From the IMG/VR virus record IMGVR_UViG_2541047812_000003: a stretch of 37,695 nt of DNA. One strand, written 5' to 3'. The notes under the pieces are model-generated. The model saw only the letters and a program-made list of their open reading frames with translations, was not told the origin of the DNA and made no database searches. Below are positions 10,973-11,948 of this stretch, piece by piece. The stretch is from a virus (Duplodnaviria; Heunggongvirae; Uroviricota; Caudoviricetes). The position numbers and the translations under genes are program-made. Numbering within the stretch: the stretch's first letter is position 1; the number at the start of each line of letters is the position of its first letter.

Positions 10973-11625
10973 TGAGTAATAAATATTGCCAGGCGCTGGT
11001 GGAACTGCGGAACAAACCAGCCCATGAACTGAAGGAAGTGGGCGATCAGTGGCGCACGCCGGACAACATTTTCTGGGGAATTAACACCCTGTTTGGCCCG
11101 TTTGTTCTGGATCTGTTTACTGACGGTGATAACGCCAAATGTGCCGCGTATTACACGGCGGAAGATAACGCGCTGGCGCATGACTGGTCAGAACGTCTTG
11201 CGGAGCTTAAAGGTGCTGCCTTTGGTAATCCCCCATACAGCCGCGCCAGTCAGCATGAGGGGCAATACATCACCGGCATGCGTTACATCATGAAACATGC
11301 CAGTGCCATGCGTGATAAGGGCGGGCGCTATGTTTTCCTGATCAAAGCTGCCACCAGCGAAGTGTGGTGGCCGGAAGATGCGGACCATATTGCTTTTATT
11401 CGCGGGCGTATTGGTTTTGAACTGCCTGCCTGGTTTATCCCGAAAGACGAGAAGCAGGTGCCGACAGGCGCTTTCTTCGCTGGTGCTATTGCTGTTTTCG
11501 ACAAGACCTGGAAGGGACCGGCAATCAGCTACATCGGGCGCGATGAACTTGAGGCATGTGGTGAGGCCTTTCTGGCGCAGGTTCGCCAGCAGGCAGAAAA
11601 ACTTGTCAGGGAGATGGCGGCATGA
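10972..11625 (+). CDS. phage DNA N6-adenine methyltransferase (Dam-like, orphan)
   Basis: Start at internal ATG (MSNKYCQALVELR...) overlapping the upstream stop (TAATG) with GGGGG Shine-Dalgarno; catalytic NPPY motif (AFGNPPYS); no adjacent restriction endonuclease gene. Confidence 0.8.
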   Translation: MSNKYCQALVELRNKPAHELKEVGDQWRTPDNIFWGINTLFGPFVLDLFTDGDNAKCAAYYTAEDNALAHDWSERLAELKGAAFGNPPYSRASQHEGQYITGMRYIMKHASAMRDKGGRYVFLIKAATSEVWWPEDADHIAFIRGRIGFELPAWFIPKDEKQVPTGAFFAGAIAVFDKTWKGPAISYIGRDELEACGEAFLAQVRQQAEKLVREMAA

Positions 11626-11948
11626 CGACGTTAACTCAATGCCAGCAGCAGGTGCTGGATATGCTGATTTCTTACCAGAAAGAGCGTGGCTTTCCGCCAA
11701 CCAATCAGGAGGTGGCAACCATGCTGGGATATCGTTCAGTGAATGCAGCGGTGGAGCATCTTCGCGCACTGGAGAAAAAAGGCGTCATCACGATAAAGCG
11801 TGGTGTGGCCCGGGGGATCACGCTTCATACCGTGGTGAAGGACGACGACAGCGAGGCGGTCGGGATTATCCGCTCACTGCTTGCCGGTGAGGAAAACGCA
11901 AGGCTGCGTGCAACTCACTGGTTACATGAGAGAGGCCTGAAAGTATGA
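11622..11948 (+). CDS. LexA N-terminal DNA-binding-domain protein (108 aa, no S24 peptidase domain)
   Basis: MTTLTQCQQQVLDMLISYQKERGFPPTNQEVATMLGYRSVNAAVEHLRALEKKGVITIKRGVARGITL follows the LexA winged-HTH domain pattern position by position (from memory of LexA); protein ends before any peptidase domain. Confidence 0.7.
   Translation: MTTLTQCQQQVLDMLISYQKERGFPPTNQEVATMLGYRSVNAAVEHLRALEKKGVITIKRGVARGITLHTVVKDDDSEAVGIIRSLLAGEENARLRATHWLHERGLKV

Follow-up and report, generated by a model that had tools for sequence, protein, structure and literature searches.

A LexA-type DNA-binding protein without peptidase domain encoded in the early operon of a prophage: a candidate RecA-insensitive LexA mimic

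The window analyzed in this study, i.e. the whole stretch of 37,695 nucleotides of a prophage (IMG/VR record IMGVR_UViG_2541047812_000003), encodes a protein of 108 amino acids in which a LexA-type DNA-binding domain (DBD) is joined by a short linker to a helical hairpin instead of the LexA peptidase domain. The protein is more than a truncated LexA, since the hairpin is family-specific and under selection. From sequence and context, we tentatively propose that it could mimic LexA at SOS boxes in the lytic phase while being insensitive to RecA, a reading to which we give a probability of roughly 40%.

Gene structure and operon context

The gene, its neighbors and the immunity repressor of the prophage are located as follows:

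9442..14914, + strand: early-right (nin-type) operon block (Pfam and PGAP annotation)
10972..11625 (alternative start 10939), + strand: Dam-family N6-adenine methyltransferase, upstream neighbor (PF05869, E = 1.1e-45; PGAP coordinates)
11608..11613, + strand: Shine-Dalgarno-like AGGGAG, 8 nt before the LexA-DBD ATG and within the 3′ end of dam (read from the sequence)
11622..11948 including the stop codon, + strand: LexA-DBD-only gene, 108 aa (ORF list and sequence)
11945..12334, + strand: RusA Holliday-junction resolvase, downstream neighbor (PF05866, E = 6e-15)
6740..7414, − strand: the prophage's own CI-type repressor with complete S24 domain (PF00717, 1-116 of 116, E = 1.5e-26), named 'LexA family protein' by PGAP

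The reading frame extends from the ATG at 11622 to the TGA at 11946-11948, and the coordinates and length given in the initial annotation agree exactly with the ORF list and the sequence. The PHROG 362 profile matched the protein over its full length (residues 1-108 vs. 1-106 of 106; E = 1.8e-59), an identical protein is annotated as 'LexA repressor' in NZ_LR890651, and homologues of 105-135 aa were found in many genera, down to about 40% identity. For the whole gene, dN/dS was 0.09-0.12. The gene is real, and its similarity to LexA is well past chance.

The operon block comprises, in this order, a small ORF, an O-like replication protein, PerC, Dam, the LexA-DBD protein, RusA, KilA-N, DUF968/HNH, and the Q antiterminator, with genes abutting or overlapping. 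The TGA of dam overlaps the ATG of the LexA-DBD gene and the stop codon of the latter overlaps the ATG of rusA, in both cases as ATGA; the overlap with rusA was also present in Salmonella and Citrobacter loci. As read from these sequences, translation of the LexA-DBD gene is coupled to that of both neighbors. The + strand showed no promoter-like site from 9400 to 12600, and terminator-like sites were absent from it over positions 9136-13577. From its position in the early-right operon and the coupling to dam and rusA, the gene should be expressed with the delayed-early genes after loss of CI, and not in the quiescent lysogen. Its location between the methyltransferase and RusA, away from the immunity region, had been described correctly: the CI/Cro region spans 6740-7705 and the gene lies about 4.2 kb to its right.

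The nin-type placement upstream of RusA/DUF968/Q was found in the window and in Cronobacter, Klebsiella, Salmonella, Citrobacter, and Enterobacter loci. Across six enterobacterial genera, the synteny with RusA and/or DUF968 ahead of Q is invariant, in most cases with codon overlaps, and all neighbors are DNA-metabolism genes. This arrangement would fit a protein that acts outside transcription, as a DNA-targeting accessory to the recombination enzymes of the nin region (RusA, DUF968 Orf-like/HNH, Dam); its winged helix would bring these enzymes to particular DNA or restrict them to it. DUF968 is an Orf-like/HNH recombination-associated family (PMC4118853), and one natural LexA-DBD::DUF968 fusion (P0156) was found. 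However, this fusion occurs just once, on a single contig, and its tail is missing, so that it is most likely a deletion; it was therefore rejected as a Rosetta-stone link between the two families. Also against an accessory role, RusA and DUF968 are widespread without the LexA-DBD gene, and the kept LexA base-reading residues (see below) point to sequence-specific operator recognition. We consider such a role improbable. A search with the PADLOC defence models gave a single sub-threshold match, to a CARF-type winged helix.

A LexA-type winged helix with most DNA contacts retained

The protein is composed of the following parts:

11622..11828, + strand: residues 1-69, LexA-type winged helix-turn-helix (PF01726, alignment, AF2 model, dN/dS)
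11736..11777, + strand: residues 39-52, recognition helix SVNAAVEHLRALEK, LexA counterpart SPNAAEEHLKALAR (alignment to LexA)
11829..11846, + strand: residues 70-75, flexible acidic linker TVVKDD (AF2 pLDDT below 50 for residues 71-75)
11847..11945, + strand: residues 76-108, family-specific C-terminal helical hairpin (…EAVGIIRSLLAGEENARLRATHWLHERGLKV) (AF2, conservation, dN/dS)

A nearly position-for-position likeness to the LexA N-terminal domain had been noted by eye in the initial annotation, and it was confirmed by profile and structure comparison. The Pfam model LexA_DNA_bind (PF01726) matched residues 1-65 with its entire length (1-65 of 65; E = 2.9e-19; 69 bits at a cut-off of 23.7). 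In a phmmer comparison with the PDB, the protein matched the N-terminal domain of E. coli LexA (1lea; E = 7e-16), with residues 2-69 aligned to LexA residues 2-69 without gaps at about 50% identity. The AF2 model superimposed on the LexA-DNA complex 3jso_B with an rmsd of 1.0 Å over 68 columns (50% identity), and its DBD consists of helices 6-22, 28-35, and 40-52 and strands 56-58 and 66-68, at a pLDDT of about 88.

LexA contacts DNA by S39, N41, A42, E44, and E45 (PMC3091678). Four of these five residues are retained in the phage protein (S39, N41, A42, and E45), E44 is replaced by V, and the wing residues R64 and G65 of LexA are also present. Likeness to host LexA (E. coli; 1lea, 1jhh, 3jso) thus extends from the ungapped winged helix and its fold to the contact residues. 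Residue counts over 113 family members gave a similar picture for S39 (113/113), N41 (111/113), A42 (99/113), R64 (112/113), and G65 (113/113), while E45 was found in 79 members and replaced by D in 22. Position 44 was E in none of the 113, and positions 40, 44, and 45 differ from subfamily to subfamily, position 45 being D in Cronobacter and Atlantibacter, L in Klebsiella, and G in one Citrobacter form. Since S39, N41, A42, E45, and R64/G65 are retained, binding to SOS-box-like DNA is plausible; since E44 is never kept and position 45 is variable, the specificity of the family may have drifted.

Lack of a peptidase domain and of a conserved cleavage site

The reported absence of an S24 domain was borne out. 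A Pfam search gave no match to Peptidase_S24 (PF00717) in the 108-aa protein or in either flanking gene, and the protein stops at residue 108. The lexA equivalog model TIGR00498 aligned only over positions 1-91 of 203 and scored 71 bits, under its cut-off of 110.95. In contrast to host LexA, the phage protein is thus without the peptidase/dimerization domain with its Ser-Lys dyad and without the conserved Ala-Gly, and bears a 33-residue helical hairpin.

Residues A88-G89 (in LLAGE) do align with A84-G85 of LexA (in VAAGE). We rejected LLAGE as a retained cleavage site or as a substrate for trans-cleavage: A88 is present in 78 and G89 in 82 of the 113 family members, Ala-Gly is missing in about 30% of the family, and the segment is helical by AF2 prediction. 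Because the catalytic domain is absent and Ala-Gly is unconserved and located in a predicted helix, LexA-type self-cleavage is, judged by the sequence, impossible for this protein, and the earlier claim of insensitivity to it stands. The predicted outcome, a LexA-type repressor that RecA* cannot inactivate, would resemble that of uncleavable LexA variants (lexA3 Ind−, S119A). However, these are full-length point mutants which still dimerize via the C-terminal domain and bind RecA*, whereas the phage protein is natural and the whole domain is absent.

A conserved C-terminal helical hairpin

The linker is gapped and of variable length among homologues. In the AF2 model, the tail behind it forms helices 74-88 and 93-103 with a pLDDT of about 88. 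Its motif …IIRxLLxxxxxARxRAxxWLxxxG, taken from family alignments, is present in the 108-aa protein; A97 is found in 113/113 members, L101 in 112/113, an aromatic residue at position 100 in 111/113, and hydrophobic residues at positions 82, 83, 86, and 87 in 113/113. No homologues of the tail were found in PDB or Pfam. An apparent similarity to RecA was discarded as an artefact, because it arose by adding up 1.9-bit matches to a PDB chain in which six copies of RecA are fused.

Both parts of the protein are under purifying selection (dN/dS 0.02-0.15 for the DBD and 0.22-0.32 for the tail). These values argue against a decaying remnant of a captured lexA without present function, as do the preservation of the 105-135-aa layout in many genera, even among homologues of only about 40% identity, and the occurrence of the gene in isolated, viable phages. 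Frameshifted copies, such as the Shigella locus L008 and many 87-89-aa variants, would fit decay, which we nevertheless regard as effectively refuted.

The same arrangement of LexA DBD, linker, and short helical part is known from engineered proteins. In bacterial two-hybrid systems, LexA(1-87) fused to heterologous dimerizing helices represses SOS reporters only when the helices associate. Unlike these artificial fusions, the phage protein is natural. The hairpin could take over the oligomerization role of the LexA C-terminal domain, and two DBDs would then sit on SOS operators of the CTGT-N8-ACAG type. The isolated N-terminal domain of LexA shows lower DNA affinity after cleavage (PMC3159453), and by weak binding to CTGT half-sites, or as an oligomer unlike that of LexA, the phage protein might instead disturb LexA occupancy and tune the SOS response by partial derepression or altered timing. 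The conserved, selected tail argues for an additional function such as oligomerization, though, and expression in the lytic phase would leave little for a competitor to act on because host LexA is already depleted. A modulator of this kind, or the competitor for host LexA suggested in the initial annotation, is therefore quite unlikely.

SOS boxes and candidate operators

A weight matrix for SOS boxes, validated on genuine lexA loci (L010-L013, 16-22 bits) and on the published Gifsy-2 box, gave no SOS box in the window: the best score was 10.9-11.1 bits, under the mean shuffle maximum of 11.8. Loose CTGT-N8-ACAG matches with at most one mismatch numbered 21 in the window compared to 12.4±3.4 in shuffled sequences, an excess that is probably due to CTG/CAG codon bias. 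The one perfect site, at 8400-8415, scored only 7.0 bits and was rejected as a canonical SOS box, with nothing in the window above 11.1 bits. Unlike lexA of the host, the gene has no autoregulatory SOS box upstream in the window and sits in a phage early operon, and no SOS box was found near it in the E. coli-type subfamily. The suggestion that the protein occupies phage operators is therefore unsupported in this prophage, as it contains no credible SOS box. Together with the complete S24 domain of the CI repressor, this also means that the prophage's own induction should be independent of LexA.

In the N-extended subfamily, SOS boxes were found, which links this subfamily to the SOS network and supports the LexA-mimic reading. 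In Klebsiella, an SOS box of 27.1 bits that overlaps the −10 region is followed by dinI and then by the LexA-DBD gene, and the Enterobacter operon of a small ORF and the LexA-DBD gene lies behind a terminator, a promoter, and an SOS box of 21 bits. These boxes may simply serve a Gifsy-like dinI/antirepressor operon that lies upstream by chance.

The lack of an SOS box to act on in the window also favors a second reading, in which the protein is a phage-specific regulator whose LexA fold reads an operator other than an SOS box, located on the phage itself or on related prophages, without effect on the host SOS response. It would activate or repress a phage promoter, e.g. for recombination or late genes. 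The precedent is the truncated LexA homologue gp6 of the Bacillus tectivirus GIL01, which recognizes a palindrome of its own and switches on late promoter P3 (PMC6182141); it is the sole characterized truncated phage LexA, with changed specificity. Also in line with this reading are the loss of E44, the variability at positions 40, 44, and 45, and a PHROG/RefSeq label that says only 'transcriptional repressor'. However, gp6, although likewise a phage-encoded LexA DBD without protease domain, altered a key residue (K38 at the position of LexA N41, where the 108-aa protein has N), whereas S39/N41/A42 are nearly invariant in the family described here. With 66 aa, gp6 has no tail, it gave no BLASTP alignment to the 108-aa protein at E ≤ 100, and tblastn of the phage collection did not reach GIL01; the two proteins are independent truncations in unrelated phages. 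Moreover, five divergent carrier loci share no non-SOS palindrome outside homologous coding DNA, so that a common operator of this type was rejected, and the late genes in the window are served by the Q antiterminator. A regulator of the gp6 kind is thus possible, if somewhat doubtful.

Distribution of the family

The family is already catalogued as PHROG 362 and, at NCBI, as 'LexA family transcriptional regulator' (105-135 aa). It is present in 2233 of 5426 (41%) complete E. coli genomes, and its carriers include SfV, mEp460, cdtI, Stx2 phages (Stx2a/2c/2k), and Shigella serotype-converting phages. The exact 108-aa sequence belongs to a cluster of 2527 members, and retrieval of loci with this single protein yielded nothing but nearly identical loci and true lexA genes. 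IrsA of Gifsy prophages was considered as a family member and rejected, since STM1020 of Gifsy-2 is a DUF1367 protein (E = 4e-98) without significant alignment to the Klebsiella homologue. No functional study of the PHROG 362 protein was found in the literature, and LexA is unmentioned in the SfIV genome paper. The protein is thus common, already annotated, and functionally unstudied in the literature found.

Proposed function and implications

Uncleavable LexA illustrates what a RecA-insensitive mimic could achieve: overexpressed non-cleavable LexA turns off SOS functions (PMC3159453), and lexA3 abolishes the induction of antirepressor-type Gifsy prophages but not that of CI-cleavage-type Fels-1 (PMC3121763). 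Since it contains no part cleavable through RecA*, the 108-aa protein would restore repression at LexA-controlled promoters during the destruction of host LexA. Its putative targets comprise host SOS genes, operons for colicins or lysis, morons of the dinI type, and, in co-resident prophages, antirepressor operons under LexA control. The own prophage would be spared from this repression because it is induced via an S24-type CI and has no SOS box. Other phage genes that weaken or modify the SOS response of the host are the DinI homologues of lambdoid prophages, GIL01 gp7, and Listeria AriS (PMC9043618), which act on the RecA or LexA protein, whereas the protein proposed here would act on operator DNA. 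In Klebsiella, the homologue shares its gene cluster with a phage dinI.

The broader idea that the many lambdoid prophages with this gene use an uncleavable LexA surrogate to re-close SOS operators once their own CI is cleaved, thereby silencing colicin lysis genes, the host SOS response, and the LexA-controlled antirepressor operons of their competitors while their own lytic program, which is independent of LexA, goes on, appears doubtful at present. If true, it would represent transcription-factor mimicry as a means by which prophages compete and the SOS response is shut off, and Stx production as well as SOS mutagenesis might be affected.

If the specificity has drifted instead, the protein would be just another small phage regulator. 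If SOS boxes are bound, nearly half of the sequenced E. coli, including lysogens of Shiga-toxin phages, would carry a gene that can override the RecA/LexA switch in prophage induction, a natural swap of a signal-sensitive regulator for a signal-blind copy of its DBD. Such a gene could alter the duration and strength of expression of SOS genes (mutagenic polymerases, division inhibition, toxin and colicin operons), decide which co-resident prophage wins after DNA damage, and change the release of toxin and phage after antibiotic treatment.

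Domain identity and anatomy of the LexA-DBD protein

The relevant features, with structural elements taken from an AlphaFold2 model, are as follows.

Features of the LexA-DBD gene, its protein and the immunity region
11622-11948, + strand: LexA-DBD gene, ATG to TGA, 108 codons
6740-7414, - strand: CI repressor, S24 type (Pfam/PGAP)
Residues 6-22, 28-35, 40-52 (helices) and 56-58, 66-68 (strands): winged helix
Residues 71-75: acidic linker, low confidence (pLDDT <50)
Residues 74-88 and 93-103: tail helices, confidently predicted

In a Pfam search, the protein matched PF01726 (LexA_DNA_bind; E=2.9e-19, 69 bits) over all 65 model positions, and with phmmer against PDB sequences residues 2-69 aligned ungapped to E. 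coli LexA 2-69 (E about 1e-15). The AlphaFold2 model, obtained with an 18-sequence family alignment as input (mean pLDDT 83), superimposed on the LexA-DNA complex 3jso with an rmsd of 1.0 Å (68 columns, 50% identity). No S24 peptidase was detected by Pfam in the protein or its neighbours, and the NCBI lexA equivalog TIGR00498 aligned over 1-91 of its 203 positions (71 bits; cut-off 110.95). The initial annotation, a LexA N-terminal domain without S24 domain encoded between a methyltransferase and RusA away from the immunity region, was thus correct in all factual respects, as the HMM confirmed the domain, a Dam-type methyltransferase and RusA are the neighbours and CI/Cro lie about 4 kb away.

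The protein is more than a bare truncated LexA. Family alignments show conservation of its tail (…EAVGIIRSLLAGEENARLRATHWLHERGLKV) in homologues sharing as little as about 40% identity. Of 113 distinct full-length members, all have A97, 112 have L101 and 111 an aromatic residue at position 100, and positions 82, 83, 86 and 87 are hydrophobic throughout. Codon analysis against the Shigella, Salmonella and Citrobacter copies yielded dN/dS values of 0.09-0.12 for the whole gene; the DNA-binding domain taken alone gave 0.02-0.15 and the tail 0.22-0.32. Selection maintains both parts. This contradicts the view of the gene as a decaying remnant, which we regard as very improbable. No relatives of the tail were detectable in PDB or Pfam; an apparent PDB match to RecA arose spuriously from a chain in which six RecA copies are fused.

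Cleavability

LexA is cleaved at the A84-G85 bond inside VAAGE, with which LLAGE of the LexA-DBD protein is aligned by phmmer. Across the family, the Ala of this pair is kept in 78/113 members and the Gly in 82/113, with AN, AK, VG and EE among the replacements, and the model predicts the segment as helical, not as an extended strand-loop. Because the catalytic domain is absent and the site unconserved, self-cleavage stimulated by activated RecA (RecA*) can be excluded, in agreement with the non-cleavability proposed initially; for the family taken together, cleavage in trans by host LexA is improbable.

DNA-reading residues and comparison with GIL01 gp6

S39, N41, A42, E44 and E45 are listed as DNA-contacting residues of LexA (PMC3091678), and the protein of the window reads S39-V40-N41-A42-A43-V44-E45. 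S39 is found in 113/113 family members, N41 in 111, A42 in 99 and E45 in 79 (D in 22), while Glu at position 44 occurs in none; the wing residues R64 and G65 are kept in 112 and 113. The E. coli-type subfamily thus retains four of the five contacts. Since residue 45 is altered in some subfamilies (L in Klebsiella, D in Cronobacter, G in one Citrobacter form), DNA specificity may not be uniform.

A shift of specificity is exemplified by gp6 of the Bacillus tectivirus GIL01, the only characterised truncated phage LexA found in the literature, which activates the late promoter via its own palindrome (PMC6182141). However, gp6 has 66 aa, no tail and K at the N41-equivalent position, whereas the window protein has a tail and N41. 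The two gave no BLASTP alignment and are independent inventions; a gp6-like change of specificity is a somewhat unlikely explanation.

Genomic setting and expression

The prophage, related to SfV, SfIV, mEp460 and cdtI, is integrated at tRNA-Thr beside proA, and the gene is 100% identical to E. coli MINF_2E DNA. According to Pfam/PGAP, the gene order is CI, Cro-like, CII-like, Rha/antirepressor region, small ORF, O-like replication protein, PerC, Dam, LexA-DBD, RusA, KilA-N, DUF968 (Orf-like/HNH; PMC4118853), Q antiterminator and lysis genes. The LexA-DBD gene shares ATGA overlaps with the dam stop and the rusA start, and AGGGAG is located 8 nt upstream of its ATG. As, in addition to these overlaps, no promoter-like site was found upstream of it within the operon block and no + strand terminator-like site in 9136-13577, the operon structure suggests that it should be expressed with the delayed-early genes in lytic development.

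The synteny (methyltransferase or PerC)-LexA-DBD-(small ORF)-RusA-(KilA-N)-DUF968-Q recurs in Salmonella salamae, S. enterica, Citrobacter, Cronobacter and Enterobacter, and Klebsiella loci show a comparable order but without RusA. A role as accessory of the RusA/DUF968 recombination module seems improbable.

Elsewhere, gathering-level Rfam matches to isrK Hfq-binding RNA (8657-8733, 60 bits) and C4 antisense RNA (8758-8845, 68 bits), both on the + strand, flank a terminator-like hairpin (8711-8728), all inside an ORF (8297-9445) annotated by PGAP and in phage records as a 382-aa 'Rha family/antirepressor' CDS. The stretch 8657-8845 looks like an antirepressor control module of the P1 c4/ant or Gifsy-1 isrK type, and the CDS may be mis-called. 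In the Q-to-holin 'moron' slot, the position of stx in Stx phages, lies a 182-196-aa ORF (15012-15602, +) that matched nothing in Pfam or PADLOC.

SOS boxes

For SOS-box detection, an approximate 20-bp weight matrix was derived from 22 LexA sites of E. coli; it recovered the autoregulatory boxes of four genuine lexA loci (L010-L013; 16-22 bits) and the published Gifsy-2 box 5' of dinI (24.4 bits; PMC3121763). The best site in the window reached about 11 bits, below the shuffled mean maximum (11.8) and all training sites, and the prophage is without a credible SOS box. A perfect CTGT-N8-ACAG at 8400-8415 scored 7 bits only and lies within coding sequence.

An N-extended subfamily (130-135 aa) is located behind LexA-box promoters in Klebsiella (L002-L005, 5361-6393) and Enterobacter (L020, 4500-5408). 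In Klebsiella, phage dinI, a small ORF with GTG start and the LexA-DBD gene are driven by a promoter whose -10 overlaps a 27.1-bit box; in Enterobacter, the string small ORF-LexA-DBD-RusA-DUF968-Q comes after a terminator hairpin, a promoter and a 21-bit box. This layout mirrors the LexA-controlled dinI-antirepressor-irsA operon of Gifsy (PMC3121763), and the accompanying conserved 82-96-aa ORF is a candidate antirepressor; the irsA-position gene of Gifsy-2 is a DUF1367 gene, not a family member. The Enterobacter repressor, its gene cut by the locus end, is apparently a short HTH protein without S24 match. The box linkage hints that the protein takes part in the SOS circuit but does not prove it.

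Strong boxes also occur elsewhere in mEp460, cdtI and Stx2a_1447, which carry the E. coli-type gene, and in Gifsy-2, which does not. A consensus-grade box (TACTGTTTTTATATACAGTA, 26-27 bits) lies within the cI-type repressor coding sequence of one immunity type in three phages (L007, 1103-1122; mEp460, 31970; Stx2a_1447, 6408), about 55-75 codons from the repressor start. Another of 21-24 bits recurs at the extreme 5' end of a late-region DNA methyltransferase gene just 3' of Q (L014, 8904; mEp460, 41021; cdtI, 44083; Stx2a_1447, 15934), in the Stx2a phage about 1.4 kb upstream of stx2A; this gene is absent from the window prophage.

Distribution and annotation

Of 5426 complete E. coli genomes, 2233 contain LexA-DBD DNA, with as many as four copies in one genome. 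At ≥90% identity it is present in 50 phage records; tblastn detected homologues in 63, including SfV, SfII, SfIV, mEp460, mEp390, cdtI and Stx2a/2c/2k phages. An exhaustive HMMER search revealed 105-135-aa relatives throughout Enterobacteriaceae. PHROG 362 ('transcriptional repressor') matches the full length, and public labels include 'LexA family transcriptional regulator', 'LexA DNA binding domain protein' and 'LexA-like protein'. Some records carry the wrong labels 'SOS-response repressor and protease LexA' or 'RecA-mediated autopeptidases', others 'Rrf2 family', and the SfV homologue, orf42, is labelled 'unknown'. The Dam methyltransferase (10972-11625) is called 'phosphoadenosine phosphosulfate reductase' in several RefSeq phage records.

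A second copy in Shigella flexneri SFBU0723 (L008, 211-537) is a pseudogene with a tail frameshift, and numerous 87-89-aa database proteins look similar. LexA_DNA_bind without S24 also occurs as tandem duplicates, possibly single-chain dimers, or in fusions with PTPS (QueD-like) or carbon-nitrogen hydrolase domains (P0131, P0133, P0154, P0193, P0200, P0236; P0157; P0204). In P0156 (240 aa, a singleton from one ENA contig), the domain continues in frame into the C-terminal half of DUF968 with its HNH part, 67% identical to the DUF968 protein of the window; a deletion between neighbouring genes is the probable origin.

Proposed function

In the most economical reading, to which we assign a probability of roughly 0.4, the protein is a RecA*-insensitive LexA mimic with a dimerising hairpin that re-represses SOS promoters. 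The hairpin would replace the C-terminal dimerisation domain of LexA, so that the protein would oligomerise and SOS operators could be occupied by a pair of LexA-like reading heads, each on a flexible linker. RecA* would find nothing to act on, and LexA-controlled promoters would be re-repressed in lytic growth. The prophage itself would be immune to the product, because its induction proceeds by S24-type CI cleavage and it lacks an SOS box. Experiments with lexA3 offer an analogue: in its presence, Gifsy prophages of the antirepressor type are no longer induced, whereas Fels-1, a CI-cleavage prophage, still is (PMC3121763). Of the initial proposal of a non-cleavable repressor or host LexA competitor, the LexA-type domain beyond RecA* cleavage stands, while the window offers no credible box for it; action as a weak competitor or modulator is hardly likely.

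The protein, which differs from both LexA and gp6, is best regarded as a LexA DNA-binding domain equipped with a novel tail; it belongs to a large, annotated family for which no functional study was found in the literature. Its existence will not surprise specialists; a demonstration that nearly half of E. coli genomes, and Stx phages too, carry a phage gene for an uncleavable LexA surrogate would be notable.
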